DNA of 64,000 nucleotides from a phage. Position numbers and translations under genes: made by a program. Under the pieces are notes generated by a model. The model was not told where the DNA came from. It ran no database searches and saw only the letters and a list, made by a program, of their open reading frames with translations. This document shows positions 22,593 through 52,370 of this stretch, piece after piece (positions within the stretch are counted from its first letter, which is position 1; the number at the start of each line of letters is the position of its first letter). The stretch lies in NCBI GenBank assembly GCA_012813795.1, contig GCA_012813795.1_4087.1. The stretch is one strand, 5' to 3'.

Positions 22593-23039
22593 TCATTTTT
22601 TAGAACTAATCTTACGTAAGTACTCAAAGTAATCTAAATCAATGTATACCTGATCGTGCTTCAAGTTCATAGTACTAATAAGATAAAACAAACGTAATAC
22701 ATGTAGTTCTTCATGATTCAGTACTGTACTCAATTGAAAGTATCCTTCGTCAGTACCTACACTTTGTATTGTCTCTCTGGTATACACTGTACGGTCATCA
22801 CTACTGTCACGTACCACAATCAACTCGTCTGCCAGTGCATTATAGGAGATGTAATTTGAATAAGAATTGAAAAATGATTGCTCATCAGAGCACCCACCAC
22901 AGAAAGTAAAATATACACACCCACCTTTCTCGTATTCAAGTTCACTACCCAATACTTTAGGATTATCATTGAAGTACTTGATTATTTGTACAATATCCTG
23001 AACCAACTTATCATTTACTTCATAATAATAAAAAAACAT
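22593..23039 (-). CDS. FamA paralog
   Basis: 148 aa; motif DEGYFQLSTVLN. Confidence 0.65.
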   Translation of the reverse strand: MFFYYYEVNDKLVQDIVQIIKYFNDNPKVLGSELEYEKGGCVYFTFCGGCSDEQSFFNSYSNYISYNALADELIVVRDSSDDRTVYTRETIQSVGTDEGYFQLSTVLNHEELHVLRLFYLISTMNLKHDQVYIDLDYFEYLRKISSKK

Positions 23040-23044: not shown

Positions 23045-23500
23045 TTACCTCTTATATTTCTGTGTCTCTATGTATTCATAATCCATATAGAAACATGTTG
23101 AATCTATACTTTTAAAGTACCACATAATGACCAGAGTATCGAGTTCATGTTCAGTATATACAGTACTTTGCTGAAAGTAATACTCTTCACTATCCCACGG
23201 ACCATCCAGTACTGAAAACGGAATTGTCAAATCTTTAGCATAATAATCAGGGTTGTATACGGTTATATCTGACCCTGGGTAGTAATTGATAAAGTAGTAC
23301 AAAGGGTTATAACCACAATTATCATGATCATAATCATCACATTGCAGTACTAATGTATCAGAACCATCAAAATCCTCAATATTCTTCGTGCAATATTCAG
23401 TCTCTGACATTTTGAAGATACCTGGAATTTCTCCACCTTTGACCTTAATCATGTACTCATGAATCTTCTTTGCTTCTTTCAATGCACTTTGTAACGACAT
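23045..23500 (-). CDS. FamA paralog, MSL-subfamily
   Basis: 151 aa; N-terminus MSLQSALKEAKKIHEYM; motif EEYYFQQSTVYT. Confidence 0.65.
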   Translation of the reverse strand: MSLQSALKEAKKIHEYMIKVKGGEIPGIFKMSETEYCTKNIEDFDGSDTLVLQCDDYDHDNCGYNPLYYFINYYPGSDITVYNPDYYAKDLTIPFSVLDGPWDSEEYYFQQSTVYTEHELDTLVIMWYFKSIDSTCFYMDYEYIETQKYKR

Positions 23501-23943
23501 TACAAATCCCCTGTACTTAAATATTCACATGCTCCCCAGTCAAGAAAGAATGGTTCAAAATTCAATTCCTTAAAGTACCACAACACAACCAAGGAATCAA
23601 GCATTTCTTGGTTAAAAATGAGACTCTGTTGGAAGTAATACTCTTCAGTACCCCACGGGCCATCAAGTACCCCGAAGTCAACAGGTGAATTTGATGTGTC
23701 AAAAGTAATCTTAGTACCTGGAATATATACCATAAAACTAGTATATTGACTACATGAAGAGTACTGTATAGTATTGTCTTTATCATGACCCATAAGTAAA
23801 ATATCAGCAGAGTATGTCTTTATACCTGATAGATAATACTCATTACCAAAAGCACTTACTTTATCACCATAGAACCCACTTTTTATGTTATCGTGGAAGT
23901 GATGTATTTTGTGTGCCAGTTCAAGTGCACTTACTAAACTCAT
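23500..23943 (-). CDS. FamA paralog, MSL-subfamily
   Basis: 147 aa; MSLVSALELAHKIHHF; motif EEYYFQQSLIFN. Confidence 0.65.
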   Translation of the reverse strand: MSLVSALELAHKIHHFHDNIKSGFYGDKVSAFGNEYYLSGIKTYSADILLMGHDKDNTIQYSSCSQYTSFMVYIPGTKITFDTSNSPVDFGVLDGPWGTEEYYFQQSLIFNQEMLDSLVVLWYFKELNFEPFFLDWGACEYLSTGDL

Positions 23944-24410
23944 ATATCCTCTTTTATAACTCGTAATAGATCCAAGTCCATATAGAAGTTAGGACAATCA
24001 GTGTTGTTAAAGTACCACAGAATGACAAGCTTGTCAAGCACATCTTCCTCGTAGATAGTATTCTGCTGGAAGTAGAACTCTTCACTTCCCCAGTCATTAT
24101 CCAGTACTGAATACGGAAGATATACCTCTGGTGCACCTGTTTGAATAAATGAATCTTGGATTAAAATATCAGCATCACGACAGAAGTACATGTAATTATC
24201 TTCCAAATTAACATCACATCCAATGAGTGTTGTTTCAGAATCATCTAAGTTTTCTTCATACATATGAATATATTCACTACTGTCATCGTATATCATTCGA
24301 CAATATGATTTACCTTCCTTGAATAGATATCCATTGAGACAATTTGATACAATTTCTTTGCTGCATAAATCAATTAACTTCGCAATCTCTAATGCTCTTT
24401 CTAAACTCAT
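23940..24410 (-). CDS. FamA paralog, MSL-subfamily
   Basis: 156 aa; MSLERALEIAK; motif EEFYFQQNTIYE. Confidence 0.65.
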   Translation of the reverse strand: MSLERALEIAKLIDLCSKEIVSNCLNGYLFKEGKSYCRMIYDDSSEYIHMYEENLDDSETTLIGCDVNLEDNYMYFCRDADILIQDSFIQTGAPEVYLPYSVLDNDWGSEEFYFQQNTIYEEDVLDKLVILWYFNNTDCPNFYMDLDLLRVIKEDI

Positions 24411-24411
24411 T

Positions 24412-24894
24412 TCAACCCCTGTGAAGTTTATTAATACCGTTATCTACAGTTTTCTTTACGTATCTGTAATCGAAATAGAAGTTCGCAGAACCAATACTTT
24501 TAAAGTACCACATAATTACAATACAATCAAGTTCTTCTTCATTGTATACAGTACTTTGTTGGAAGTAATACTCTTCACTATCCCACGGACCTTCCAGTAC
24601 TGCACACGGAATTATAATGTCATCGGTATCGTGGACAGTACTGTAGATGGTAATATCTCCATCATTAACATAGACCATGTACTCATTATGCATATCAATG
24701 AAACATTCATAATCATTAGGGTCGGTATCTAGTACGCACGTTTCTGTATCTGGGAAGTCATTATCAATGAGGTTATCAGAGACATAATATTGAGTACTTG
24801 TGTCTTTGGAAATACCGTAAACTGAACCTTCTTTTGCCATATTCATGTACTCATGAATCTTCTTTGCTTCTTGTAATGCTCTTTCTAAACTCAT
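24412..24894 (-). CDS. FamA paralog, MSL-subfamily
   Basis: 160 aa; MSLERALQEAKKIHEYM; motif EEYYFQQSTVYN; C-terminal ...LHRG encoded by a repeated junction sequence. Confidence 0.65.
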   Translation of the reverse strand: MSLERALQEAKKIHEYMNMAKEGSVYGISKDTSTQYYVSDNLIDNDFPDTETCVLDTDPNDYECFIDMHNEYMVYVNDGDITIYSTVHDTDDIIIPCAVLEGPWDSEEYYFQQSTVYNEEELDCIVIMWYFKSIGSANFYFDYRYVKKTVDNGINKLHRG

Positions 24895-24895
24895 T

Positions 24896-25078
24896 TCAAC
24901 CCCTGTGAAGTGTCTTAATATATTCTCGGTACGCCCAGAGAATATTAGCTATATACAATTCACTACTATCTCGTGCACCGAAGCTGTCATTTGTAATACA
25001 GTTTTTATGACTAATGTCTTTAACAAAACGACGAATAACTGCGTTTATAAATGATTCCATTTGTTCTTTTTTAAGCAT
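24896..25078 (-). CDS. hypothetical protein, possible duplication remnant
   Basis: 60 aa; shares only the C-terminal LHRG-stop junction with 24412..24894. Confidence 0.4.
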   Translation of the reverse strand: MLKKEQMESFINAVIRRFVKDISHKNCITNDSFGARDSSELYIANILWAYREYIKTLHRG

Positions 25079-25404
25079 CAGTACTCCAGATTAATAGAAT
25101 AAATGCAAGAACGAACTATTTGGTCCTTGTTATCTCTGTAGTACTTTTGTAATGCAAGGTACATAAAGAAATCGATTTCTTTATCCCATACTAATGATTC
25201 CTGAAATATAAAACTTTCATAGTTCTCCATGTATTCGCATTCGATGTAATTAGGAAGCTTATCTGTTTTGGATATGTACTCAATATTACATTCATTGAAA
25301 TCACGAATAATCAATATAGGTGTTTTATTCAATGTAGTAAAAAAGCACGTATAAGTAAAACCACTTCCCATTGTACTTGAAGAAACATATATTTTAGTAT
25401 TCAT
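25078..25404 (-). CDS. FamA paralog (short)
   Basis: 108 aa; motif ESFIFQESLVWD. Confidence 0.6.
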   Translation of the reverse strand: MNTKIYVSSSTMGSGFTYTCFFTTLNKTPILIIRDFNECNIEYISKTDKLPNYIECEYMENYESFIFQESLVWDKEIDFFMYLALQKYYRDNKDQIVRSCIYSINLEY

Positions 25405-26116: not shown

Positions 26117-26316
26117 AATAACCTCTACTATAATTAATAAGGTAAACTACAATATAAGGAGCACGTTCGGCGGCGGGGTATTTTTTGTTTAAGGAAACAT
26201 GAACTGTACTCTGAAAAACACAATATAAAATTTTATATTAAACATATACCTTAACATGTTTTTCAGCGAAAATTTTTTTGACCCCCAAAAACAAGCCTAT
26301 ATTTATCATTTTAAAA

Positions 26317-26883
26317 TTACCCCTTTTCCGCGTCCTTATCAAACACGTACTGTATGTACTGAAGCATTGCAACGAGATCAATATCACGGTCAAATCTCAA
26401 CGTTAACTTCTCCGTTAACTCCCCGAAGGTATCATAATAATGCTTAACAAAATAACGATATCGTATTGAATTATAATCGTGCAATGTACTGTACTGAAAC
26501 ACTACATCAGGACTATATGGCATCAAATCTATAAGCTCACTTACTTTTAATTTCTCATTTTCGCCATTATTTTTAACTGTTATATATTCATTTGAACTGA
26601 ACCATGCACATGATACATCTGAACAAATTGATGTTGTACTGTAAAATCTATCTGTACTCACAAATAATACACTATGTGATTTGTTGGATTTTCTTTCGTA
26701 AATCGATAAATCCGACATAAGCGTAATGATTGGTTCGTGACGAAATTTATCATGCTGGTACGTTTCCTGAAACGCATTCGGATTTTTGTAAATCCTATCT
26801 ACAATTAAATACAACCCCTTGATGTATTCTAAATCATCTTCTATCGCTTTGCATGTACTTTCTATGTCCTGAAGGTCCAGCAT
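26317..26883 (-). CDS. FamA paralog
   Basis: 188 aa; motif PDVVFQYSTLHD. Confidence 0.65.
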   Translation of the reverse strand: MLDLQDIESTCKAIEDDLEYIKGLYLIVDRIYKNPNAFQETYQHDKFRHEPIITLMSDLSIYERKSNKSHSVLFVSTDRFYSTTSICSDVSCAWFSSNEYITVKNNGENEKLKVSELIDLMPYSPDVVFQYSTLHDYNSIRYRYFVKHYYDTFGELTEKLTLRFDRDIDLVAMLQYIQYVFDKDAEKG

Positions 26884-41157: not shown

Positions 41158-41246
41158 AATGTTTTACTCCAAACTATTGGCGGGAGAACTATTCCCCCGC
41201 TCTATGTAAAACATTATACACTATAGGATAGTACTGTCAAATAGTT

Positions 41247-41504
41247 TTATGAGATATCCTCGATATAGTCGGCCCATTTCATTTTTTCAGTACTGTCAAT
41301 GGCTACCGGATTATTTGGATCAAACCATTCACCATTACCGCAATACATCCCCACGGCAACGGTTTTATATCCATCCTGGGCCGTATTCCAGGCAAGGCCA
41401 CGATAGATACGGCCTTTAACTGGTTGCAGTACTGGTAACGTTTTATGGTCTTCTACGTAGGCCATAGCTTGAGGATTTACCCGATATTGTGTGAATTGTT
41501 CCAT
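41247..41504 (-). CDS. hypothetical protein (paralog of 41585..41851)
   Basis: 85 aa; shares V.P..G..Y....W.....Y....G.W.DP..P pattern with neighbour. Confidence 0.6.
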   Translation of the reverse strand: MEQFTQYRVNPQAMAYVEDHKTLPVLQPVKGRIYRGLAWNTAQDGYKTVAVGMYCGNGEWFDPNNPVAIDSTEKMKWADYIEDIS

Positions 41505-41584
41505 GATGTTTCCCCTTTTAATATTGGGGGAGTATTCCCCCTATGCAAAACATTATACACTATCAGTTAGTACTGTCAATACTA

Positions 41585-41851
41585 TCAATTAAATTTAGGA
41601 TGTATTTCAATGTAGTCACAATAAGGAAAATATTCAATATAACGCGTAGTGATTGGATGTAACGGATCGGACCATACACCGCTACCCTCATAGCGTGCTA
41701 GTGGGCCTTTTAAGTACTTTTGTTGTTTCCTTGACCAGTATATGGATTGATAGACTACACCAACGGCAGGGACAACGAGCGGGAGCATAGAGTGATCTAA
41801 TACAACGGATTGATAATTTTTATTATAGCGATATGTTGTTTTCTTTTTCAT
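41585..41851 (-). CDS. hypothetical protein (paralog of 41247..41504)
   Basis: 88-aa minus ORF. Confidence 0.6.
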   Translation of the reverse strand: MKKKTTYRYNKNYQSVVLDHSMLPLVVPAVGVVYQSIYWSRKQQKYLKGPLARYEGSGVWSDPLHPITTRYIEYFPYCDYIEIHPKFN

Positions 41852-41903
41852 TGTTAACCTATTATAGAAATTATTAAGGGGATATTATCATCCCCTTTTA
41901 TTG

Positions 41904-42128
41904 TTATACTAGATTATTTAATCCTCTTATGGTTGATGCTTTTTCTTCTTTCTCCCATTGACGGTAATACTTCCATGCTTCGTGATAGGTGGCGATCAGT
42001 TCATCTTTTTGATCCTGATTACATGCCAGTACTGAATCACGGAAAGCGGTGTTATAGATAGAATCGAATGATTTCTTTTCTGCCGCCAGGTTAGATACTT
42101 CCCGAATCAGTTCATCATGATTAGCCAT
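41904..42128 (-). CDS. hypothetical protein
   Basis: Track ORF trimmed to ATG at 42128 (MANHDELIREV...). Confidence 0.6.
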   Translation of the reverse strand: MANHDELIREVSNLAAEKKSFDSIYNTAFRDSVLACNQDQKDELIATYHEAWKYYRQWEKEEKASTIRGLNNLV

Positions 42129-42196
42129 CGTAGTACTCCTTATTAGTGGGGGAGGATATCTCCCCCTATGCAAAACATTATACTTTGTTTTACTTA

Positions 42197-42460
42197 CTAT
42201 GCAAGTACTTTTTTCATATAAACATTAAATTCTACACCGCCGTAACCTTCTACGATGATATGTTTTGCGTTATCACGCTTGCACATAGTGAAACCGTTGT
42301 TGATATGTTCTGCATTTTCCAGGGATACATCACCGATAGCGGCACATACGGCACTTATAACAGTATTCCGCAAAGTACTGGTATCGTTAGCGGTCATAGT
42401 AGTTTGCAGTACTACGTTGTCGTATACGTGTGCATTGATAGTGATTTCAATAGCGTTCAT
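42197..42460 (-). CDS. hypothetical protein
   Basis: Track ORF trimmed to ATG at 42460 (MNAIEITINAH...); discarded MFYIERGKWFPL is translated promoter/hairpin. Confidence 0.6.
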   Translation of the reverse strand: MNAIEITINAHVYDNVVLQTTMTANDTSTLRNTVISAVCAAIGDVSLENAEHINNGFTMCKRDNAKHIIVEGYGGVEFNVYMKKVLA

Positions 42461-42547
42461 GGTGTATCTCCTGGACTTGAGGGGAAACCATTTCCCCCTC
42501 TCGATATAAAACATTATACGTTGATCTAACTACAATGCAAGTACTTT

Positions 42548-42739
42548 TTAAATTTTATTTCCGATATAGTCCGGCCTATTCTTTTCGGTCATACGCTTTG
42601 CTAATGTTTGCATATGGCTTATCGCGTTTAAGGTGTCTTCCTCCAGGGATGAATCAACATAATCAGGATCATTCTTCACCTTACAATGATTATGATAGCG
42701 TAGTACTGCCAGTACTTTTTTAACTTCTTCAACTGTCAT
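42548..42739 (-). CDS. hypothetical protein
   Basis: 63 aa; ATGA start/stop overlap with the upstream gene (translational coupling). Confidence 0.55.
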   Translation of the reverse strand: MTVEEVKKVLAVLRYHNHCKVKNDPDYVDSSLEEDTLNAISHMQTLAKRMTEKNRPDYIGNKI

Positions 42740-43008
42740 AATAAGTATTCCACTTCGTTAGCTTTCAGGTTAGTATCAATCATCAGTGGATTTTTGTAGT
42801 TCACAAAACGATTAGTTTTCTCGATAGCGAATCCCATATAATCCAGCTTACTAACAGTACATTCATTCTTAAAAACTTCTTTCGCTGCATCGATGGCTGA
42901 TTGCATGGATAACCGACCATCTAAATTAATGTTTCCAAATGATCCACCAGCAGAAGTAGGATTACCGTTCATATCTTTAATGATCATAGTAGCGGAGTAG
43001 CTAGACAT
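42736..43008 (-). CDS. hypothetical protein
   Basis: 90-aa minus ORF with promoter module upstream. Confidence 0.6.
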   Translation of the reverse strand: MSSYSATMIIKDMNGNPTSAGGSFGNINLDGRLSMQSAIDAAKEVFKNECTVSKLDYMGFAIEKTNRFVNYKNPLMIDTNLKANEVEYLL

Positions 43009-43061
43009 AATTTTGTTTCCTTTTAGTATCGGGGAGAACTATTCTCCCCTTGATGTAAACT

Positions 43062-43089
43062 ATTATACAGTACTGATATACTTTGTCAA
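43062..43089 (-). promoter_or_regulatory. sigma70-like early promoter (module copy)
   Basis: Minus strand TTGACA-N16-TATAAT; 5'-UTR hairpin GGGGAGAA..TTCTCCCC; module duplicated ~exactly at 43504-43586. Confidence 0.6.
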
Positions 43090-43095
43090 ATACTT

Positions 43096-43503
43096 TTATT
43101 CGCCCATATAGATTAGATTATCATCGCCTACATAGGGATCGCAAACGTTGATTTCTTCGCAGTACTTAGTGAATACATCGTCATAGTGACCGATATCACG
43201 ATCCCAAAAGCCAGTGCCGTGACCTTCGCGAGTAAGAAAGAGATCATGACCTGCATGATTATAAGTATAATCAGGATTATGGTGTTTTTGTACTGTTTCC
43301 ATATCTTCACCATGTACAGCAAGGAAACGTGAACATGCAATCACTGCCGCTTGATGGGCTTGCTCTGATAATTCATAATCTTCCAGGTAATCGCCGTTCT
43401 CATTGTATACAGTACTGAATTGCATAGCTTCAATGTAACCAGCGACCATTGCAGCATGATTTTTATCGTTGGTGATGTTCCGAGCTTGATTAGTAGTAGT
43501 CAT
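43096..43503 (-). CDS. hypothetical protein
   Basis: 135-aa minus ORF. Confidence 0.6.
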   Translation of the reverse strand: MTTTNQARNITNDKNHAAMVAGYIEAMQFSTVYNENGDYLEDYELSEQAHQAAVIACSRFLAVHGEDMETVQKHHNPDYTYNHAGHDLFLTREGHGTGFWDRDIGHYDDVFTKYCEEINVCDPYVGDDNLIYMGE

Positions 43504-43555
43504 GTTTTTATTCCTTTTAGTATCGGGGAGAACTATTCTCCCCTTGATGTAAACT

Positions 43556-43583
43556 ATTATACAGTACTGATATACTTTGTCAA
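43556..43583 (-). promoter_or_regulatory. sigma70-like early promoter (module copy)
   Basis: Minus strand TTGACA-N16-TATAAT; duplicate of the 43062 module. Confidence 0.6.
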
Positions 43584-43586
43584 TAC

Positions 43587-43808
43587 TTAATTACGTTTAA
43601 AATGATATGTGCCTTTATCATCCTGAACGCCCCATACTGATTTACCATCAACACCAGTGAAGCCGGATTGTAATTCAATATGGAAACCATTATTATCAAC
43701 TACAAAAACTTTTTTATTTTCATCCCGATAACATTGATATTCTGAATCAACATTAAAGGCCGCATCATTCAGAAGATTGGAAGCGTAAATGCAAGTCATT
43801 GTAGTCAT
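43587..43808 (-). CDS. hypothetical protein
   Basis: Track ORF trimmed to ATG at 43808 (MTTMTCIYASN...) with AAGGA SD. Confidence 0.6.
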   Translation of the reverse strand: MTTMTCIYASNLLNDAAFNVDSEYQCYRDENKKVFVVDNNGFHIELQSGFTGVDGKSVWGVQDDKGTYHFKRN

Positions 43809-43930
43809 GATTTTATTCCTTATTGCCAGGGAGAACCGTTTCCCCCTCTCGATATAAAACATTATACTTGATTCTAAGTACAATGCAAGTACTTTTTAAA
43901 AATAGTTTTCAGTACTCAATCATTATACAA

Positions 43931-44020
43931 TAGATACACTCCCGCACCCTATGGGTCAGTGAGCTATCTCTCAATGAATATATAATAGCAAAGGGACTGA
44001 CCGGAGTCAATCCCTTTTTT
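43931..44020. repeat. conserved inter-gene boundary element, copy 2
   Basis: Same unit as 40861..40950, directly 3' of the kinase-like gene. Confidence 0.6.
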
Positions 44021-44028
44021 AATCTTTT

Positions 44029-44613
44029 TTATCGTGTTATAGTTACGGCTTTTACGTCGCGTTGTTTATAGTACTGATTCCAAATATTGCGGGTTAAACC
44101 GTAATCAAGTACTTTAATCAGGCCATTGCGATCCTCGCCTATGTTCTGCTTTCTGATATCTCTTATCGTTAGTGTTGATAAGGTATCATCAACGTGTTGT
44201 AGTGCATCAGCGAAATGGTGTTGGCGTTCAATAGTGTTACGTTTAACATTGTACTTTAATTCATTGCAAGCGTTAACGTGCTTTACACTGCCTTTGCTTG
44301 CAGTACTCAAACGATCCATAACAATAAACATATTATCAGGATCGCTTAAATGCATATGCACTTTCGCAAAGAACTGTTTCAACCGAGGACGGTCATAATC
44401 TAAAAAATTCCATACCTTACATTCTGTTTCATTTTGTTCTACGCCAGCATCACAATTCGCGACCTTAATCACTAACCGATCATTTAAAGCGAATACGATA
44501 CGGGATGATCCGGCCCCGATGATTTCAAGTCCAGCCAACCGACAAACTGTAAGGATCTCTTTGTTAGTTTCCATTTCTGCCAGTGCCCGGATGAATTTAG
44601 TATAGTTACGCAT
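44029..44613 (-). CDS. protein kinase-like protein (T7 gp0.7-type Ser/Thr kinase fold suspected)
   Basis: 194 aa; glycine-rich loop IGAGSSRIVF, conserved lysine context LVIKVA, catalytic-loop-like DIRKQNIG, DFG-like VLDYG; AAGGAG SD. Confidence 0.55.
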   Translation of the reverse strand: MRNYTKFIRALAEMETNKEILTVCRLAGLEIIGAGSSRIVFALNDRLVIKVANCDAGVEQNETECKVWNFLDYDRPRLKQFFAKVHMHLSDPDNMFIVMDRLSTASKGSVKHVNACNELKYNVKRNTIERQHHFADALQHVDDTLSTLTIRDIRKQNIGEDRNGLIKVLDYGLTRNIWNQYYKQRDVKAVTITR

Positions 44614-44664
44614 TGCATTTACTCCTTAAGATAGCAGGGAGGTATTCCCTGCCTTGATGTGACT

Positions 44665-44693
44665 ATTATATGTTAGTACTAATTAGATTGCAA
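44665..44693 (-). promoter_or_regulatory. sigma70-like promoter of the kinase-like gene
   Basis: Minus strand TTGCAA-N17-TATAAT. Confidence 0.55.
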
Positions 44694-44910
44694 CAGTTTT
44701 ATTTGCAATTACTGAATGAATTGCGGTTTTACCTGATTTAGTACTGAATACATTAGCACGACCATTTTCAATAGTGATGCGGTATTCACCTTTACTATCA
44801 ATGAGGTTGATAAATTCAGGAGTACTAAACCGAGTTACTTTAAAAGTCAGTACATTGAGCAGGTCCACCAGCGTAGTAGTTTCTTTGATGCGTTCTAAGA
44901 TATTAATCAT
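44683..44910 (-). CDS. hypothetical protein
   Basis: 75-aa minus ORF. Confidence 0.55.
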   Translation of the reverse strand: MINILERIKETTTLVDLLNVLTFKVTRFSTPEFINLIDSKGEYRITIENGRANVFSTKSGKTAIHSVIANKTVAI

Positions 44911-44975
44911 TTTGTTTCTCCAGTTATTCCGTGTTGGTATAGATACATAGTACTAAAACATTTGAGTACTGTCAA

Positions 44976-45194
44976 TTAGATAATTGCATATTTCTTTAAA
45001 GATAATGCGTCTTGTGTTGGCTGATACTCCACGCCGTTACCGTTATCTACTTTAACTAATAAACCTTTGTCAATTAGTTTTTTAATAGTCCGTTGGCCTT
45101 GTTGAAAATTGGTAAAGTGTGAATCATTACGAAAGGTGTAACCATGTTGGATAGCTACATCAATAGTTTTCTTTTCGACTTTAGATAAATTCAT
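44976..45194 (-). CDS. hypothetical protein, possible small DNA-binding protein
   Basis: 72 aa; basic, ...RTIKKLIDKGLLVKV... reminiscent of a winged-helix recognition helix (weak). Confidence 0.45.
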   Translation of the reverse strand: MNLSKVEKKTIDVAIQHGYTFRNDSHFTNFQQGQRTIKKLIDKGLLVKVDNGNGVEYQPTQDALSLKKYAII

Positions 45195-45248
45195 TTTGTT
45201 ACTCCCCGTGTTGGTATGTACATATAGTACTAAAACATTTGAGTACTG

Positions 45249-45503
45249 TCAACGTGATATTAGTTTTATTTTCTTATTATATTGTTGGTGTTCATAGAGG
45301 TTCATCTTTCCGGTATTCTCGATTACTATCCTGTTGTTAGTGTCCACATCGATTACACGCAGTTTTCCGTTGCTTAACTTCCTCGGTAATAGATTACCAT
45401 TAATAAACTCATTAGCGAGCGTGACGGCCTTTGTGATGATTCTCTGAGGGGCTTTATAGTGTACCCGCAAGATATTATCTTTAGATAGTTGTACCTTAAT
45501 CAT
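45249..45503 (-). CDS. hypothetical protein
   Basis: 84-aa minus ORF. Confidence 0.55.
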   Translation of the reverse strand: MIKVQLSKDNILRVHYKAPQRIITKAVTLANEFINGNLLPRKLSNGKLRVIDVDTNNRIVIENTGKMNLYEHQQYNKKIKLISR

Positions 45504-45516
45504 TTTAGTTTATCCT

Positions 45517-45543
45517 ATAAAAAAGGCGGGAACTGATCCCGCC
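45517..45543 (-). terminator. rho-independent terminator
   Basis: GGCGGGA-actga-TCCCGCC hairpin followed on the minus strand by UUUUUUAU; downstream of 45566..45970. Confidence 0.65.
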
Positions 45544-45565
45544 GTGTTGTTAGTACTGCAAGTTA

Positions 45566-45970
45566 TTAGATAACCTGGCGGCGTTTACTGAATACTGTTA
45601 CACGATTACCCTTACGATCATGTCGGATCTCTTTCTGGTTGCGAACCAGTTCACTTGGACGCTTGAGGTTTGCCAGGTGATCCGCGTGAGTCCAAGCGGT
45701 ATGGTTTGCCTGTACTTTGATATCAGAACCAGCGATAAACTCATCTTGTGCGTCAAGTATTGCCGCCAGCATATCCGCTCGTTTTAGTTCTGCTGCTGTC
45801 AGTACTGGTTCAGGTGAATTCACAATATCAGAGATTTCTTTGAACTGTACGGCCCAGCGTTGGCCTTTCGGTGCTGTCGTTCCCATGTCTTTAAATGCTG
45901 CTCCTTCCTCGCGTGCAACAATACGGGCAGCTTCACGGGTAGCGTAGAATTTAGTAATCATGGTATACAT
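45566..45970 (-). CDS. hypothetical protein (paralog of 56881..57147)
   Basis: 134 aa; shares FxTREqAR..A...GA.FKDMG and IKHDRKGNRVTV with 56881..57147. Confidence 0.6.
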   Translation of the reverse strand: MYTMITKFYATREAARIVAREEGAAFKDMGTTAPKGQRWAVQFKEISDIVNSPEPVLTAAELKRADMLAAILDAQDEFIAGSDIKVQANHTAWTHADHLANLKRPSELVRNQKEIRHDRKGNRVTVFSKRRQVI

Positions 45971-46056
45971 CCTATTAGTTAAGTTAGTACTACAAGTTAG
46001 AGTCTATTATAAAGTACTATCTGGGCAATGTCAAATAGTACTTTAAATGGATTCTA

Positions 46057-46380
46057 TTACATGTCTTTCTTACGTTTTACATCGTTGTAGCGAACTGTTA
46101 TTTCTTTGTTGATCTCTTTTTCTATTTGATGAATAACTTTTTCTTTCGGGTTGAAACCTATAACGGTTTCTTTAATGATCTCCAAGCCTGTGTATTCGCC
46201 TTGTGTGCCGTAACCGTAAGTAAAGGTTTCATGTCCTAAATCCTCCCAGCGATCACCAATCAAAGCAGACACGTAGCAAGAGTGGTAAGTATTGCCGTGT
46301 GAATCAGTCCACCGATTAACATTAATGTCAAAGGAAGTAATAATTTTCAGTTCTACTTTCTGGGTGAGGATCATAGCCAT
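46057..46380 (-). CDS. hypothetical protein (paralog of 51661..51984)
   Basis: Track ORF trimmed to internal Met (MAMILTQKVEL); shares RWTDSxGNTYHSC.VS...FTYGY...NVKRKKD with 51661..51984. Confidence 0.6.
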   Translation of the reverse strand: MAMILTQKVELKIITSFDINVNRWTDSHGNTYHSCYVSALIGDRWEDLGHETFTYGYGTQGEYTGLEIIKETVIGFNPKEKVIHQIEKEINKEITVRYNDVKRKKDM

Positions 46381-46468
46381 TTTTATTTCTCTCTCTTTGT
46401 TAGGAGGGGAACCGTTTCCCCTCACTTGATGTAAACTATTATACAGTACTAAGATACTTTGTCAATAC

Positions 46469-46651
46469 TTATTTTTTGGAAAGTTTACGCATTAATTCTA
46501 CGCTTTCTTGTGAACGTTTTGCTACCTGGCAATCTGCATGGGCAGTAAACATTTTTGTATAGTCTGACGCTTTGCCACCGAACCGAGCGGCACGTTCACG
46601 GGCACTTGGAACTAATACGATTTCTTTCTTACAGATAGTGCACTTAGCCAT
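46469..46651 (-). CDS. small Cys/His-containing protein
   Basis: Track ORF trimmed to MAKCTICKKEIV...; CxxC...HxxC spacing suggests possible Zn binding; the upstream ~90-bp promoter module is identical to that of 46057..46380. Confidence 0.5.
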   Translation of the reverse strand: MAKCTICKKEIVLVPSARERAARFGGKASDYTKMFTAHADCQVAKRSQESVELMRKLSKK

Positions 46652-46739
46652 TTTTATTTCTCTCTCTTTGTTAGGAGGGGAACCGTTTCCCCTCACTTGA
46701 TGTAAACTATTATACAGTACTAAGATACTTTGTCAATAC

Positions 46740-47015
46740 TTAAGTATTGTAAATGTCGTGAATAGTGATAAAGTTTTTACGACCGTAAACCTGTAAATCA
46801 GTATCAATGTAGTGCTTATCAAGTACATCCTCGACGCTTAACGCGGTGTCGTGAATATCTTCGTAGAATTGAGGATCTACAATCTTGCTTAAGTCATCCG
46901 GCGTTAACTTATCGTTAAGCCATTGAACCGCCTGGATATCTGCATCACGTTTCCAGTCTTGCAGGTTAGTAGTAAGTACTTGTTCGATTTCGTTAGCTGT
47001 CAGTAGAATCCGCAT
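46740..47015 (-). CDS. hypothetical protein
   Basis: 91-aa minus ORF. Confidence 0.6.
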   Translation of the reverse strand: MRILLTANEIEQVLTTNLQDWKRDADIQAVQWLNDKLTPDDLSKIVDPQFYEDIHDTALSVEDVLDKHYIDTDLQVYGRKNFITIHDIYNT

Positions 47016-47244
47016 TTTATGTTTCCTTCTCAGTGGTTGATGTAAGTATTATACTCGTTTACTTTCTATTGTCAAACTATTTTATCAGGGGAGTTTTTCG
47101 TGTGCCTTACTCCTGGGCTACTTAACGGGGTTACTTGTTTCATTCCCCGTCCTGATGTAAAACATTATACTTGATTCTAAGTACAATGCAAGTACTTTTT
47201 TATAATAGTTTTCAGTACTAGATAATACGTCCACCAGCATATAA

Positions 47245-47335
47245 TAGATACATTTATGCACCCTGTGGGCTGATTTGTTTCTATGCGTATATAATAGCAA
47301 AGGGACTGACCGGAGTCAATCCCTTTTTCAATTAT
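47245..47335. repeat. conserved inter-gene boundary element, copy 3
   Basis: Same unit as 40861..40950. Confidence 0.6.
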
Positions 47336-47337
47336 TT

Positions 47338-47487
47338 TTAAACTTCTTTTGGGTTGCGATATGTGATAGCGTTAGGGTACATTTTCTTTAAGTTATTCCA
47401 TGCCTGGTTAAGACTATAACCGCTGGATCTTACTAGTTGGTGCATACCTTGCCCCAAAAATGTAACTTCGAATAAGTATTCTTTCAT
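47338..47487 (-). CDS. small protein (49 aa), not in ORF track
   Basis: Hand-translated MKEYLFEVTFLGQGMHQLVRSSGYSLNQAWNNLKKMYPNAITYRNPKEV; GAGGTG SD; ATGA overlap with the upstream gene. Confidence 0.45.
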   Translation of the reverse strand: MKEYLFEVTFLGQGMHQLVRSSGYSLNQAWNNLKKMYPNAITYRNPKEV

Positions 47488-47657
47488 GCTTGCACCTCGC
47501 GATCTGCTTTGCCTTTACGCCAGGCCGTTGCTAATTGTTCGCGTTGCCATACATCCAGCGATACGTAAAGTTTTGCGGTATCACCTTTCGGATATTCGCC
47601 AGTAGTACCCATCCGATAAAACAGATCTTTCAGTACTGTCAATTCTACCTGGATCAT
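47484..47657 (-). CDS. small protein (57 aa), not in ORF track
   Basis: Hand-translated MIQVELTVLKDLFYRMGTTGEYPKGDTAKLYVSLDVWQREQLATAWRKGKADREVQA; AAGGA SD; promoter module upstream. Confidence 0.45.
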   Translation of the reverse strand: MIQVELTVLKDLFYRMGTTGEYPKGDTAKLYVSLDVWQREQLATAWRKGKADREVQA

Positions 47658-47744
47658 GTTACTTTCCTTTTTGTTAGGAGGGGAACTATTCCCCTCTCTA
47701 TGTAAAACATTATACTTGATTCTAAGTACTACACAAGTACTTTT

Positions 47745-47957
47745 TTAATCTTTCAGCCAATGATCTTGGATGAATTTTTCACCGAAGCCTTGCTGCATGG
47801 ATTGTAACAGGCGTTCACGGTGAGCGGCGGCAAATTGCTCAGTACTATGCGTTACACCTGGTTGATATCTGGATTCACCATTGGGGGCGATGTATTGTAC
47901 ATCCCACGGTTTAGCGTTAGTATCAGACCATTTACGAACGATTAGTTGACCTTGCAT
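47745..47957 (-). CDS. hypothetical protein
   Basis: Track ORF trimmed to internal Met (MQGQLIVRKWSD). Confidence 0.55.
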   Translation of the reverse strand: MQGQLIVRKWSDTNAKPWDVQYIAPNGESRYQPGVTHSTEQFAAAHRERLLQSMQQGFGEKFIQDHWLKD

Positions 47958-48043
47958 TTTTCTTTCCTCAGTACTGGGGAGAATCATTTCTCCCCTTCAT
48001 GTAACTTATTATACAGTACTATAATCTATTGTCCAGTACTTTT

Positions 48044-48232
48044 TTAAAGTTTATGAATTAATTCTTTATCTAAACGATAGCGTACATTATTAATTGTAAC
48101 AGCATTGTTTTTAATGCTACGCTGTACAGGTCCACCAGCAATAACAAACGTTGCCTTATTACCCCGAACAATGATAGCACTTCCTGGATTGCCGTATTCA
48201 TCTTGTACTAAAATACTTGATAATTGTTCCAT
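48044..48232 (-). CDS. hypothetical protein
   Basis: 62-aa minus ORF with promoter module (TTGACA-N16-TATAAT) upstream. Confidence 0.55.
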   Translation of the reverse strand: MEQLSSILVQDEYGNPGSAIIVRGNKATFVIAGGPVQRSIKNNAVTINNVRYRLDKELIHKL

Positions 48233-48393
48233 TTTGTTTTCCTCAGTACTGGGAAGGGTTATCCTCCCCTTGATATAAAATATTATACACTATCTATCAG
48301 TACTGTCAATACTTTTTAGTACTTATTTAAACGCTCTCAAACGCATTCTAACGAGCTAATCTATTTTGTAGTACTATCGGATAGGTATATACT

Positions 48394-48422
48394 AAAAAGC
48401 CCACCAGCGTTAACCAGTGGGC
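48394..48422 (-). terminator. rho-independent terminator
   Basis: GCCCAC..GTGGGC hairpin followed on the minus strand by UUUUUAGU. Confidence 0.55.
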
Positions 48423-48428
48423 TATAAT

Positions 48429-48572
48429 CTTACATCTTGCGGATAATCTTAACAGTATCTTTCACCGATTTACCGTCTTGCTGGCATTGTTCGATCATTG
48501 CGTATTGTTCTGTGGTCAGATCTTCGCCAGTTTTTTCCAGTACTGCTTCGATGAATGAATCCAGTGCGATCA
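48429..48572 (-). CDS. small protein (47 aa), not in ORF track
   Basis: Hand-translated MIALDSFIEAVLEKTGEDLTTEQYAMIEQCQQDGKSVKDTVKIIRKM; promoter TTGACT-N16-TATAAT upstream, terminator downstream. Confidence 0.45.
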
Positions 48573-48663
48573 TTTTCTTTCTCTCTTAGGTTAAGTTAAC
48601 TACTGTTTATAAAACTTATTATACAGTACTATCGTATAGAGTCAATAGTACTGGTAATATATT

Positions 48664-48843
48664 TTAGCGGTAGTCGTCGTATGCTTTATTCAACTGGCGA
48701 ATGTAACTTTCAAAGGCTTCGTCTACCGTTTCATACTCCAGAACATAATCACCATAGGAAACTACATACATACCTTTTTGATCTTCAAACGTCATGATGA
48801 TAGAATCCAGACCAACGATTTCAGTTTTTGCGATGATAGCCAT
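48664..48843 (-). CDS. hypothetical protein
   Basis: Track ORF trimmed to MAIIAKTEIVG...; extension translates a promoter module repeated four times in the window. Confidence 0.55.
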   Translation of the reverse strand: MAIIAKTEIVGLDSIIMTFEDQKGMYVVSYGDYVLEYETVDEAFESYIRQLNKAYDDYR

Positions 48844-48925
48844 TTTTAATTCCTTAGTAGTGTAGTTGATAAAATCTATTATGCCAGTACTATCAATCTT
48901 TGTCAATAGTACTGTGATAATATTT

Positions 48926-49138
48926 TTAGTTAATGATAGTCAGTGTAAAATTGTAATCCCCTGCCTGGTATAGTATTTTGTCGCCGAACGTACCAACACG
49001 TTTCATATTGCAATAGATACCCATAACATTTTTTACATCTTTGATATTCCGAACGCCTGTGATATCCTTGTTGAAATTTTCATGATCAGAAAATAAAACT
49101 TGTTTTGCATTTTTCAGTACAGTGCAGATATTAGCCAT
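48926..49138 (-). CDS. hypothetical protein
   Basis: Track ORF trimmed to internal Met (MANICTVLKNAKQ). Confidence 0.55.
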   Translation of the reverse strand: MANICTVLKNAKQVLFSDHENFNKDITGVRNIKDVKNVMGIYCNMKRVGTFGDKILYQAGDYNFTLTIIN

Positions 49139-49217
49139 TTTGTTTTCCTTAGTTGTCTTGATAAAATCTATTATGCCAGTACTATCAATCATTGTCAATA
49201 GTACTGTGATAATAATT

Positions 49218-49577
49218 TTAATCCTGTAAACCGTTCGGGAAGAAATCGAGGCGATCATCGTCGTTCTCGCGTTCGGCGTAAGCACTTTCTAACGCCTCGC
49301 CAGTGTGATCATCAGTTAGATAATCATCCTCATAGTTCACATCCACACCAGTGATGAAAAACTGGCTATCGTCTGGATCATTGAAATTAATTTTCTGAAT
49401 GTTTACAATAACTGTATTGATTCCCAGGACACCGCCATCAGCCGTTACAAAGTACTGATAGTTTTCACATCCACCACTATTGAAACCGTAATTGATTTCG
49501 GCCCGACCATCATTTAAACGCAGTGCCTGGGCGATGATTTCGTTTTCAAAGTTAGATTGAGCAATTGAGATAGTCAT
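49218..49577 (-). CDS. hypothetical protein
   Basis: Track ORF trimmed to MTISIAQSNF... Confidence 0.6.
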   Translation of the reverse strand: MTISIAQSNFENEIIAQALRLNDGRAEINYGFNSGGCENYQYFVTADGGVLGINTVIVNIQKINFNDPDDSQFFITGVDVNYEDDYLTDDHTGEALESAYAERENDDDRLDFFPNGLQD

Positions 49578-49699
49578 GATTCGTTTCCTTATTACCAGGG
49601 GAAACCGTTTCCCCTCTCGATGTAAAACATTATACGCCAATTGAGATAGTTTGCAAGTACTTTTTAAAAATAGTTTTCAGTACTCAATACTTATATAAT

Positions 49700-49800
49700 A
49701 GATACACTTATGCACCCGGTGGGCTAGTGAGCTATCTCTCAATGAATATATAATAGCAAAATGGCTGACCGAAGTCAACCACTTTTTTCATTTATTTTTT
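49700..49800. repeat. conserved inter-gene boundary element, copy 4
   Basis: Same unit; the hairpin here shows compensatory substitutions (TGGCTGAC..GTCAACCA) relative to copies 1-3, consistent with selection for the structure. Confidence 0.6.
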
Positions 49801-49926
49801 AGCTTTTAGAATCGCCGCCTTTCGCGTCATGCCTTGCTTGATGTACTCCTTTACTTTCGCTTTACGTGCTTTCGCTTTATCTGCTTTCGTTTTAGGAGTA
49901 CTGTAAATTAAACCGTTAGGATTCAT
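49792..49926 (-). CDS. small Lys-rich basic protein (44 aa), not in ORF track
   Basis: Hand-translated MNPNGLIYSTPKTKADKAKARKAKVKEYIKQGMTRKAAILKAKK; TAAATG junction with the upstream small gene. Confidence 0.4.
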   Translation of the reverse strand: MNPNGLIYSTPKTKADKAKARKAKVKEYIKQGMTRKAAILKAKK

Positions 49927-50016
49927 TTAAATCACCATAAAGAATAGATATGTTACTAACAATACCGCGATCAATGCACCGCCCAGGGCCGAACTGTAAT
50001 AAGCTAATGATTTCAT
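49927..50016 (-). CDS. small hydrophobic peptide (29 aa), not in ORF track
   Basis: Hand-translated MKSLAYYSSALGGALIAVLLVTYLFFMVI, a single predicted TM helix; ATGA overlap with the upstream gene. Confidence 0.35.
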   Translation of the reverse strand: MKSLAYYSSALGGALIAVLLVTYLFFMVI

Positions 50017-50165
50017 TTTTTAGCCTGAAAATAATGTTTAATTTGAGCGGCGGTCAGTGCACAATTACGCAGGAAGTTTTCTGTATAACTGCGGCGAGTA
50101 CTGAAAGAAAATTGACCTTTGCCGTTGCCGATAGTAACATCAAACCGAGCATTATATTGTTTCAT
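50013..50165 (-). CDS. small protein (50 aa), not in ORF track
   Basis: Hand-translated MKQYNARFDVTIGNGKGQFSFSTRRSYTENFLRNCALTAAQIKHYFQAKK; AAGGAGA SD; promoter module upstream. Confidence 0.45.
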   Translation of the reverse strand: MKQYNARFDVTIGNGKGQFSFSTRRSYTENFLRNCALTAAQIKHYFQAKK

Positions 50166-50247
50166 TTTGATTCTCCTTGTATCAGGGGAGAACCATTTCC
50201 CCCCTCTATGTAAAACATTATACAGTACTAAAAACTAATTGCAAGTA

Positions 50248-50394
50248 TTATTTTTTAGATTTACGCAAACTTTCTACCATCTCAGGAGTAAGGCCCGGCG
50301 GGTAGGAAACCACTTCATCAACGAAACGTAAAGGGAATACCCCAGCGAAAGGTGAACATGCTTTCTTGGTATTACTCTTTTTTGATGCTTTCAT
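50248..50394 (-). CDS. small protein (48 aa), not in ORF track
   Basis: Hand-translated codon by codon: MKASKKSNTKKACSPFAGVFPLRFVDEVVSYPPGLTPEMVESLRKSKK; AAGGA SD. Confidence 0.45.
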   Translation of the reverse strand: MKASKKSNTKKACSPFAGVFPLRFVDEVVSYPPGLTPEMVESLRKSKK

Positions 50395-50476
50395 TTCATA
50401 TTCCTTAATTAGTGGGGAGAACCATTTCTCCCCTCTATGTAAAACATTATACAGTACTGAAAACTAATTGCAAGTA

Positions 50477-50719
50477 TTATTTTAAACTTTGTGCGACTAA
50501 TTTCGCACGGTCAATCATATACTGCCATTTTTGGATCTCTTCTGGTAGAAAACGATATTCACCAATAACAATAGTGATACACTTTTCAGCCTGGTCAATG
50601 TATGTAGTATCAATCTCGACTTGAACGGGTACACGTTCGCCGTATTCAGTTCCTGGGATAATACAATCATTATCATAAGTAACAGTAGTTGCAGTGTCTT
50701 TGATTAAAATGGTTTCCAT
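50477..50719 (-). CDS. hypothetical protein
   Basis: Track ORF trimmed to METILIKDTA... Confidence 0.6.
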   Translation of the reverse strand: METILIKDTATTVTYDNDCIIPGTEYGERVPVQVEIDTTYIDQAEKCITIVIGEYRFLPEEIQKWQYMIDRAKLVAQSLK

Positions 50720-50771
50720 TATACTTTCCTCGTTAGGTGTAAGGGGAAAAAGTTTCCCCTCTATGTAAAAC

Positions 50772-50799
50772 ATTATACAGTACTGAAAACTAATTGCAA
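50772..50799 (-). promoter_or_regulatory. sigma70-like early promoter (module copy)
   Basis: Minus strand TTGCAA-N16-TATAAT, then GGGGAAAC..TTTCCCC hairpin, then GAGGAA SD. Confidence 0.6.
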
Positions 50800-50999
50800 G
50801 TATTATTTTCTAAAAAATGATTGTATGCTGCATCAACCACTCTTTCGATAACATACGCCATCGGCACGTATCCAACTACATGACTACAATAGAAAGGACT
50901 ACGATTAGAATCATCGTATGCAAATACTTTTTCAGGATCTGCATCAATCACATACATATTAACTTTGAGTATGTCAATCTTATCCTGTACAGTAAGCAT
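50790..50999 (-). CDS. hypothetical protein
   Basis: 69-aa minus ORF. Confidence 0.55.
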   Translation of the reverse strand: MLTVQDKIDILKVNMYVIDADPEKVFAYDDSNRSPFYCSHVVGYVPMAYVIERVVDAAYNHFLENNTCN

Positions 51000-51004
51000 A
51001 TTAA

Positions 51005-51259
51005 TTAACCTTTTAAGTACTGGCTCAAATAGTCTTTTTGTTCTTCGGTGATTGGCGGCATCTTCCCTAGTACTGGATTGATGATATAATCCCCTGTAAC
51101 GTCATGATCCGCGTTCTCAGTACTAGCAACCGGACGAATACGGGCCATCGCCTGGGCTTGTTCTACGCTGTATTGTTCGTATAGTCTGCATTCTTCCGGT
51201 GTAGGCATTACATCGCTACGCTGCATAGGTTTAATGATGCTTTCTTGATTAACGTTCAT
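51005..51259 (-). CDS. hypothetical protein
   Basis: 84-aa minus ORF. Confidence 0.55.
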   Translation of the reverse strand: MNVNQESIIKPMQRSDVMPTPEECRLYEQYSVEQAQAMARIRPVASTENADHDVTGDYIINPVLGKMPPITEEQKDYLSQYLKG

Positions 51260-51310
51260 GGTATTATCCTCAATATTAGCGGCCTAAATCGACCGCTAAC
51301 GATGTTTTGA

Positions 51311-51580
51311 TTAATAGGTGTATGGTTGACGCTCAAACAATGATTGCACGTTGTACGCCCCGCTAATGGGCTTCGCTGGCAAATCAATTTTATATTGCTC
51401 ACGCTTAAAGATGATAAAACGACAATTGTTCTTAATATCAAAATTGATTGAACGTTCCAGGAGTTTTCCATCGTGCACAAATACAAGATAACCGCTTGCT
51501 ACTTGTTTTGTAGTACTGGTTGCAACCATCGACCGACGAACATGCGTACCTGCATCGATTAAAGTACTGATATTTTTCAT
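51311..51580 (-). CDS. hypothetical protein
   Basis: 89 aa; preferred over overlapping 51256..51486 because of AAGAGGA SD. Confidence 0.55.
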   Translation of the reverse strand: MKNISTLIDAGTHVRRSMVATSTTKQVASGYLVFVHDGKLLERSINFDIKNNCRFIIFKREQYKIDLPAKPISGAYNVQSLFERQPYTY

Positions 51581-51660
51581 TTTACTATCCTCTTAATTTG
51601 ATTTAATTTCTTTCCCCTATGCAGACACTATATCAAAGTATCTGCATAAAGTAAAGCTAA

Positions 51661-51984
51661 TTAAAGATCTTTTTTGCGTTTAACATTCTGTACAGTACAA
51701 TGCAACGGGATAGACAAATCATTACACAAACGATAGAGGGAGGTTTCAACAGTATCAAGCCCGTCTACTGATTCCTTTAAGAGATCTAACGCCGTTTGTT
51801 GATATGCATCTTCATAGCCATAAGTAAATGATTCAACCGCCAGATCATTCACACCGTTATCCAGTTCAACGCTTACATGACAAGAATGATAAGTATTGCC
51901 ATATGAATCAGTCCAACGTTTACCGTCAACATTGATTGCACGGATTGCAGCCAGGGAAACGGTGTTAATGATAGTTTTAGCCAT
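51661..51984 (-). CDS. hypothetical protein (paralog of 46057..46380)
   Basis: 107 aa. Confidence 0.6.
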   Translation of the reverse strand: MAKTIINTVSLAAIRAINVDGKRWTDSYGNTYHSCHVSVELDNGVNDLAVESFTYGYEDAYQQTALDLLKESVDGLDTVETSLYRLCNDLSIPLHCTVQNVKRKKDL

Positions 51985-52075
51985 TTTAGTATTCCTTAAA
52001 TTAATATGCGTTGTCTTGATAAAATCTATTATGCCAGTACTATCAAACTATGTCAATAGTACTGTGATAATATTT

Positions 52076-52288
52076 TTACTTACTTTCTTTAGCTGCTTTA
52101 TGTGCTTCCACTGCCATAACCACATCAGCACGAACAAAGTTAGCAACCGTATCAGTGTAATATTTGATTGCATCGTCAACTTCTGCGAACGTCCGATACA
52201 TACCACACCAAGATACTTTATAACCTGCTTTCACTTGTTCCAGCTTAACCAGTGATTTGTTTACTTTGATTTTAGTAATGATAGCCAT
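52076..52288 (-). CDS. hypothetical protein
   Basis: 70-aa minus ORF. Confidence 0.55.
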   Translation of the reverse strand: MAIITKIKVNKSLVKLEQVKAGYKVSWCGMYRTFAEVDDAIKYYTDTVANFVRADVVMAVEAHKAAKESK

Positions 52289-52370
52289 TTTTTGTTTCCT
52301 CTTAGTTGTCTTGATAAAATCTATTATGCCAGTACTATCAAACTATGTCAATAGTACTGTGATAATATTT

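Follow-up and report, generated by a model that had tools for sequence, protein, structure and literature searches.

The window, a 64,000-nucleotide (nt) stretch of phage DNA, is tightly packed over bases 1 to 34,000 with small genes on the minus strand, including four adjacent members of one protein family (F1 to F4) and a neighboring gene of 60 amino acids (aa), o60. All five lie on the minus strand: F1 (23045..23500, 151 aa), F2 (23500..23943, 147 aa), F3 (23940..24410, 156 aa), F4 (24412..24894, 160 aa), and o60 (24896..25078), a conserved gene outside the F family. The F proteins start with MSLQSAL, MSLVSAL, MSLERAL, and MSLERAL, respectively, with F3 beginning MSLERALEIAKL, and they carry the motif EEYYFQQS in F1, F2, and F4 and EEFYFQQN in F3. 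An earlier note on this DNA had correctly described four adjacent genes with MSL(Q/V/E)(S/R)AL starts and EE(Y/F)YFQQ(S/N) motifs; the KIH that it placed after the start motif is present in F1, F2, and F4, but F3 has LID instead. F4, by all appearances a hybrid gene, has the tail NKLHRG, and o60 has the tail KTLHRG followed by a stop codon.

The closest relative of the window is Escherichia phage A4, with 98.5% identity across the full 3-kb region, and the central 1.8 kb of this region is 84 to 88% identical in most other records. Matches comprise 34 Asteriusvirus records in total, among them 121Q, PBECO4, G17, JP4, phAPEC6, and Sharanji, and this homology identifies the window as evidently part of a ~350-kb jumbo myovirus, a coliphage of the genus Asteriusvirus (121Q/PBECO4 group). 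Long open reading frames (ORFs) are sparse at 34 to 61 kb of the window; an alternative genetic code or a block of tRNAs was rejected as the explanation, as a search of that segment found no tRNAs and relatives annotate ~90 very small genes there.

The 5' boundaries of F3 and F4 carry two copies of the same short sequence. One of these, J' (24390..24436, minus strand), comprises the last 8 codons of F4, a Shine-Dalgarno sequence (AGGGG, 24416-24420), TGA-A-ATG, and the first 7 codons of F3, and it appears to be the native 5' boundary of F3. The other, J (24874..24920, minus strand), comprises the last 8 codons of o60, a Shine-Dalgarno sequence (AGGGG, 24900-24904), TGA-A-ATG, and the first 7 codons of the hybrid F4, and it appears to be a second copy of the F3 boundary. 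The copies are identical at 45 of 47 positions and contain an exact 38-mer (24390-24427 and 24874-24911); self-comparison of the region, which the earlier note proposed as a check on its repeat of ~35 bp, confirms nucleotide identity at the junctions, 2 nt away from where the note had placed it. On the coding strand the repeat reads cttcacaggggttgaaATGAGTTTAGAAAGAGCATTA, which encodes LHRG-stop with the AGGGG Shine-Dalgarno sequence embedded, a 1-nt spacer, and then MSLERAL. One junction copy and the F4 cassette together make up a repeat unit of 484 nt (24428..24911, minus strand).

Outside the repeat, F3 and F4 are ~52 to 55% identical in nucleotide sequence, such that the two copies mismatch at 0 of 38 positions versus ~48% of positions elsewhere between these genes. 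None of 20,000 column permutations of the F3/F4 alignment produced an exact run of 38 nt (P < 5e-5), and the 38-mer is the longest exact repeat within the paralog array at 1 to 34 kb. The same o60-J-F4-J'-F3 layout is present in A4, which was sequenced independently, and the arrangement is therefore not an assembly artifact. No sigma-70 promoter-like sites were found at 24390-24436 or 24874-24920 (the regional count is 29, against 31.8 in shuffled sequences), and RNA structures at the junctions have minimum free energies of -5.7 and -10.2 kcal/mol (z-scores relative to shuffles, +0.53 and -0.66). The absence of a promoter and the shuffle-level z-scores (-0.7 to +0.5) rule out the junction as a promoter or an RNA element.

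Three arrangements of this locus occur among the relatives. Type A (~25 records, including 121Q and PBECO4) consists of a gp369-like gene, F4 (with an MTLQSS start and usually an INRG end), F3, F2, F1, and F0, without o60. Type B (8 records) consists of o60, F3, F2, F1, and F0, without an F4 ortholog; the best match to F4 in these phages, at 57 to 60%, is F1. Type W consists of o60, J, F4, J', and F3 and is limited to the window and A4, or 2 of ~36 genomes. Outside type W, o60 and F4 are perfectly anticorrelated. The ~25 F4-bearing type A records match F4 at 75 to 82% aa identity in alignments reaching residue 156 only, and the 5' ends of their F4 genes are uniform (MTLQSS) across many lineages. 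A comparison of copy number across relatives, also suggested in the earlier note, finds F4 present or absent exactly as the repeat-bounded 484-nt unit. Searches for further type W genomes yielded none in a pattern scan of IMG/VR and, in a metagenome scan, three loci that were all type A.

The F genes themselves are old. Pairwise identities among F1 to F4 are 30 to 49% in amino acids and 51 to 66% in nucleotides, with saturated synonymous divergence (dS of 1.0 to 2.2); F3 and F4 are 39% identical in amino acids (dS of 1.04), and the nearest paralog of F4 is F1, not F3. Recent tandem duplications, as the earlier note had taken these genes to be, are marked by copies that remain nearly identical from end to end, with little synonymous divergence, and by copies that are missing or single in close relatives, and F1 to F4 display neither feature. 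Orthologs of F2 and F3 are present in both type A and type B phages, and orthologs of F4 are present in the ~25 type A records. In a tree of orthologs from nine loci, sequences group by gene and not by genome, with deep paralog and short ortholog branches. Outside the A4 lineage, the nucleotide identities of orthologs are 83 to 97% for F2, 89 to 93% for F3, and 89 to 91% for F4, and dS between orthologs of these three genes is 0.04 to 0.57. The saturated dS of the paralogs, along with the separate clades formed by the F2, F3, and F4 orthologs, indicates that the duplications predate the radiation of the sampled Asteriusvirus phages. Values of dN/dS are ~0.3 for F2 and F3 and 0.5 to 1.0 for F4 on the window lineage; each of these genes has thus been individually maintained. 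The F1 gene of the window is only ~71% identical in nucleotides and 60% identical in amino acids to the gene at the same position in other Asteriusvirus phages.

The 60-aa ORF was regarded in the earlier note as a remnant left by duplication, a view that its conservation contradicts. Full-length homologs detected by tblastn are 80% identical in amino acids in A4 and 63 to 66% identical in eight other phages (TH47, fEgEco12, Turkey3, vB_Ec-M-J, WPEC3, WPEC5, CMSTMSU, and ph0011). Between the window lineage and these eight phages, dN/dS is 0.23 to 0.42 at a dS of 0.5 to 0.7, and o60 is evidently a real small gene under purifying selection. Its native place in all eight phages, which lack F4, is immediately upstream of an F3 ortholog, with the same junction: in fEgEco12 and ph0011, for example, o60 adjoins the F3 ortholog on its upstream side with the same stop-N-ATG spacing, and the homologous tails read KTQHRS or QTLHGS and then stop. 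The homologous tail and shared junction show that the LHRG tail is native to o60. The note was right that the ORF has only its C terminus in common with the family (KTLHRG, compared with NKLHRG in F4). The iterative hidden Markov model (HMM) search of the F family did not recover o60, which scores ~1 bit with filters off, and the gene has no PHROG matches. It is neither a member nor a fragment of the EE..FQ.S superfamily.

At the 5' boundary of F4, the window switches from homology with one group of relatives to homology with another, and the resulting gene is a hybrid, as is characteristic of mosaic exchange. Upstream of the F4 start codon, the window is homologous to the tail of type B o60; the first 21 nt of F4 (+1 to +21) match F3 exactly; and from about +27, F4 is orthologous to type A F4 (~91% nucleotide identity). 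This succession suggests that J is the 5' boundary of F3 joined to o60 and that J' is the same boundary joined to F4. In silico deletion of one 484-nt unit generates an o60-F3 sequence that is colinear with and 86.6% identical to fEgEco12, the sole gap being a 3-nt indel inside o60. Compared with INRG, the common ending of F4 in type A, the NKLHRG tail has 3 additional codons. One metagenomic contig of type A (L010) also has this 9-nt extension (KPH for KLH; F4 tail INKPHGG), and even there homology between the F4 and o60 tails spans ~25 to 28 nt. Given the shared extension, the likeness of the F4 and o60 tails in part predates the type W hybrid.

F1 and F2 do not differ between the window and A4, and F3 and F4 are 98.6 to 98.9% identical. 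Differences between the two phages cluster at 24873-25049, making the upstream repeat copy, J, a divergence hot spot. Four of the differences fall at J (24873, 24874, 24880, and 24909), and at three of these (-15, +15, and +21) the window has the state of J', and the exact repeat is therefore 38 nt in the window, as opposed to 28 nt in A4. At -14, both repeat copies of the type W lineage have t, and all other lineages in which the position exists have a. Because the differences at J edge a larger divergent patch over o60, they may have come from another phage as readily as from conversion within the genome. The earlier note spoke of ongoing unequal recombination at gene boundaries; the homology breaks, the 484-nt unit, and the hot spot at J bear out recombination at boundaries, and its continuing activity is suggested by comparison among genomes. 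Two contigs, L011 (1 kb, coverage of 1.3) and L013 (1.4 kb), contain F2, then an F1/F4 hybrid, and then F3. These were rejected as direct evidence of unequal recombination, as their switches at shared k-mers make them probable de Bruijn-graph assembly chimeras: L013 both switches and ends on the shared EEYYFQ k-mer (27 nt exact), and L011 switches inside the shared 5' stretch.

With moderate confidence, we attribute the type W arrangement to ectopic (unequal) crossing over in which an o60-F3 parent recombined with an F4-F3 parent at the 5' ends of F3 and F4, where these paralogs resemble each other; we infer both the direction of this event and its mechanism from the genome comparisons. Such an event would yield a hybrid F4 whose first 7 codons come from F3 and would automatically duplicate the F3 boundary. 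J and J' would then have swapped sequence locally, through short-tract gene conversion or further inter-phage patches. The boundary module would supply a ribosome-binding site and tight stop-start spacing, such that a cassette swapped at this point would remain expressed, and the conserved N-terminal helix would tolerate the swap. Recombination between the direct repeats of 38 to 47 bp could now precisely delete or amplify the 484-nt F4 cassette. A RecA-type recombinase is annotated in an Asteriusvirus genome (PMC11895373), which is consistent with recombination on short homologies. Counting against the parents specified by the crossover, the o60 protein of the window is only 63 to 66% identical to that of type B phages, and the genes further upstream are not type B-like; the actual left-hand parent is therefore not among the sampled genomes.

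The opposite polarity, with type W ancestral, is less parsimonious than an origin by crossover, and we consider it possible and on the unlikely side. An old tandem duplication would have included the o60 tail, and repeated conversion would have kept J and J' alike; type B would have arisen by deletion between J and J', and type A by replacement of o60 and the 5' end of F4. Such a history accommodates the type B arrangement obtained by deleting one unit in silico, the homology of the F4 and o60 tails in contig L010, and the signs of concerted evolution between J and J', but it demands that a tract of 38 to 47 nt stay 96 to 100% identical while the adjoining genes diverged to ~52 to 55% nucleotide identity and a dS of ~1. 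The relationship of F4 to F1 rather than to F3, the confinement of type W to 2 of ~36 genomes, and the uniform MTLQSS 5' ends of type A F4 across many lineages also speak against it.

An account by crossover is further preferred over one in which no recombination took place and the likeness of the junctions reflects selection on the ribosome-binding site, the stop-start spacing, and the N-terminal helix MSLERAL. All four F-gene junctions have a G-rich Shine-Dalgarno sequence 6 to 10 nt upstream and tight or overlapping stop and start codons, ACAGGGG recurs at the F2/F1 junction, and MSL(E/Q)(S/R)AL is conserved across the subfamily, as such selection would have it. The identity of J and J', however, extends to every synonymous position: F3 and F4 both start with the codons AGT TTA GAA AGA GCA TTA, whereas for the residues that they share, F1 and F2 have TCG, CTT, and TTG instead. 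Selection of this kind is also at odds with the complete match over 38 nt beside ~48% mismatches elsewhere, with the absence of RNA structure, and with type A F4, whose 5' end and upstream sequence are different, yet which is maintained in ~25 genomes; we view it as improbable. Recent tandem duplication of F3/F4 and of the whole four-gene block, with the 60-aa ORF as a truncated leftover copy, would leave a junction direct repeat spaced one gene length (484 nt) apart, as is seen, but it is ruled out by the divergence of F3 from F4, the orthologs of both across the genus, and the conservation of o60 as a gene with no HMM similarity to the family.

F1 to F4 match PHROG 9317 end to end (E = 4e-47, the value for F1, to 4e-60). 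This PHROG and the related 12674, 34017, and 28680 consist of hypothetical proteins of RaK2-like jumbo phages with no assigned function, and the comparison says nothing about mechanism. An iterative HMM search of the window returned 45 matching ORFs with an acidic median pI of 4.8, of which 44 form a one-strand array at 4.9 to 34.3 kb. Residues F111 and Q112 of the EE-x-x-F-Q-x-S motif are invariant in an alignment of 47 members (window paralogs plus database homologs), and F1 to F4 combine this F-Q with the full-length profile match that together define the superfamily. In a confident AlphaFold2 model of F4 (pLDDT of 88.6), the motif lies on C-terminal helices, and the fold further comprises a beta-sheet region and an N-terminal helix. 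The model has no significant match among solved structures; its predicted fold matches uncharacterized proteins of 121Q, RaK2, Serratia phage BF, and SP27 at E < 0.01, with weaker matches to proteins of the Yersinia fHe-Yen9 phages and GAP32. Among 1.84 billion representatives searched with a family profile, only 151 clusters reached E ≤ 1e-3, almost all of them 100 to 215 aa long, and the family is apparently narrow, being restricted to RaK2-like jumbo phages. Searches for function gave no credible match in Pfam, one sub-threshold match in PADLOC (MTase_II, E = 0.028, 11 bits), and "unknown function" families alone in PHROGs, and neither the family nor the junction is described in papers on 121Q-group and RaK2-like phages. 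The position, size, and acidity of the proteins and the literature on related phages (PMC5259590) suggest an early, host-directed role. A broader reading, which we offer as speculative and doubtful, is that the ~44 EE..FQ.S proteins, spanning ~30 kb of the window, constitute a diversifying host-takeover or antidefense arsenal whose cassettes are gained, lost, and hybridized via portable boundary modules composed of a Shine-Dalgarno sequence, adjoining stop and start codons, and a conserved N-terminal helix, with J and J' still recombining.

The locus provides a clean, base-pair-resolved example of the remodeling of an accessory array in a jumbo phage, in which a duplicated translation-initiation boundary could then mediate precise gene loss or gain. 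It also corrects the tempting impression of a young array, and the age and individual maintenance of the paralogs argue that each may have its own function. For annotators of Asteriusvirus genomes, the practical value is modest: o60 merits annotation as a gene in its own right, and F4 as a hybrid. The protein family, which is unexplored and predicted to be structurally novel, is flagged for functional work.

Among known systems, the PeSL cassettes of T4-type phages (Arbiol et al. 2010, PMC2839356; Comeau et al. 2014, PMC4122927) are comparable in several respects. Both PeSLs and J are short boundary repeats terminating in a Shine-Dalgarno sequence and start codon, and both flank small, nonessential genes of unknown function in hyperplastic early regions. 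Like PeSLs, which bound insertions, deletions, and replacements between close relatives, J and J' coincide with the presence or absence of F4 and with the breaks of flank replacements. Unlike PeSLs, J has neither a sigma-70 early promoter nor a stable stem-loop with a G/C tract, lies within coding sequence (the end of one gene and the start of its neighbor), and exists in two copies only. With promoter and RNA structure absent, J was rejected as a PeSL cassette as defined by Arbiol et al. (PMC2839356), its behavior being analogous. If the arsenal reading were true, the boundary modules would represent a coding-sequence counterpart of PeSL-mediated shuffling. Genuine PeSL-like cassettes are present at 41 to 58 kb of the window, away from J and J'.

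Modular evolution and conserved boundary sequences were reportedly described in lambdoid phages by Susskind and Botstein in 1978, Juhala and coworkers in 2000, and Clark and coworkers in 2001. As in mosaicism of the lambdoid type, homology here starts and stops at gene boundaries, single genes act as modules, and short conserved boundary sequences can act as crossover sites. In contrast to that type, the partners in the present case are paralogs of one family in a tandem array, so that the crossover would be unequal, would make a hybrid gene, and would change copy number.

Tandem multigene families subject to unequal crossing-over and gene conversion, including the poxvirus "genomic accordions" said to have been reported by Elde and coworkers in 2012, resemble the F array in having paralogs presumed to act on the host, repeat-mediated changes in copy number, and hybrid genes. 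The copies in accordions are near-identical and recent, whereas the F paralogs are ancient (dS of at least 1) and share just the boundary tract of 38 to 47 nt. J and J' are, in all probability, the outcome of ordinary phage mosaicism acting on an old, uncharacterized multigene family.

Near 23065, the 3′ end of the F block (the adjacent minus-strand paralogs F1 to F4) holds a second mosaic break. F1 of the window (23045-23500) is only ~71% identical in nucleotide sequence to the F1 genes of other lineages, with dS of ~1, and its neighbor is a 148-amino-acid (aa) gene (MFFYYYEV..., 22593-23039) standing in place of F0. In phages of both arrangements lacking one of the genes at the other end of the block (type A, without the conserved 60-aa gene o60, and type B, without F4), this slot is occupied by the F0 paralog (MSLQSALEKAKE). 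Upstream of o60, a 108-aa gene (25078-25404) matches 121Q gp375 at ~75% of nucleotides over ~110 nt. In 121Q, gp375 sits across the F block from this position, beyond F0 in the downstream direction, which indicates that the order of genes has been reshuffled between members of the family.

Phage A4, the closest relative of the window, diverges from it in a second cluster at 26200-26400 (25 differences in 200 nt, against a background of 0 to 5 per 100 nt outside it). This cluster, located around an intergenic gap and the 3′ terminus of a 188-aa gene (26317-26883), is probably a further patch of recombination. Among close relatives, F4 is either 156/157 or 163/164 aa long because some type A orthologs (L003, 4268-4759; L004, 3860-4354; proteins P0003 and P0005) carry an internal tandem duplication of seven codons (DTETCVL-DTETCIL); F4 of the window has the single-copy form.

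Two metagenomic contigs, L011 (ENA ERZ1755840; 1,002 nt) and L013 (OERJ01002822; 1,396 nt), contain the tail of F2, an F1/F4 hybrid gene, and F3, the order expected from an unequal crossover between F1 and F4 or from a circle. Their switch points and ends sit at k-mers common to the paralogs; both contigs are therefore probably assembly chimeras, and we do not count them as genuine recombinants.

An array of ~44 tandem superfamily paralogs (4957-34304, minus strand, plus 61869-62540) takes up ~30 kb of the window. These proteins are 100 to 215 aa in length, with a median pI of 4.8, and share the motif EE-x-x-F-Q-x-S, in which F-Q is invariant. No solved structure matches the predicted fold of the superfamily, which appears to be confined to RaK2-like jumbo phages.

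Repeats of other kinds occur elsewhere in the window. A 9-nt unit, GTACTGATT, is present in ~6 to 7 tandem copies at 60304-60363, in a region where GC skew switches sign. At least 16 composite cassettes lie upstream of small open reading frames on the minus strand (41182-57551), each ordered as a promoter, TTTACATCAAG, a GGGGAGAA..TTCTCCCC hairpin, SD, and ATG. The promoter follows the sigma-70 consensus (TTGACA or TTGCAA, N16-18, TATAAT), with 11 perfect matches versus 0.21 expected, and the longest exact repeats among cassettes are 98 nt (46374/46645), 77 nt (52010/52305), and 73 nt (43017/43511). These features fit the published account of PeSL (promoter/stem-loop) shuffling cassettes in T4-type phages.
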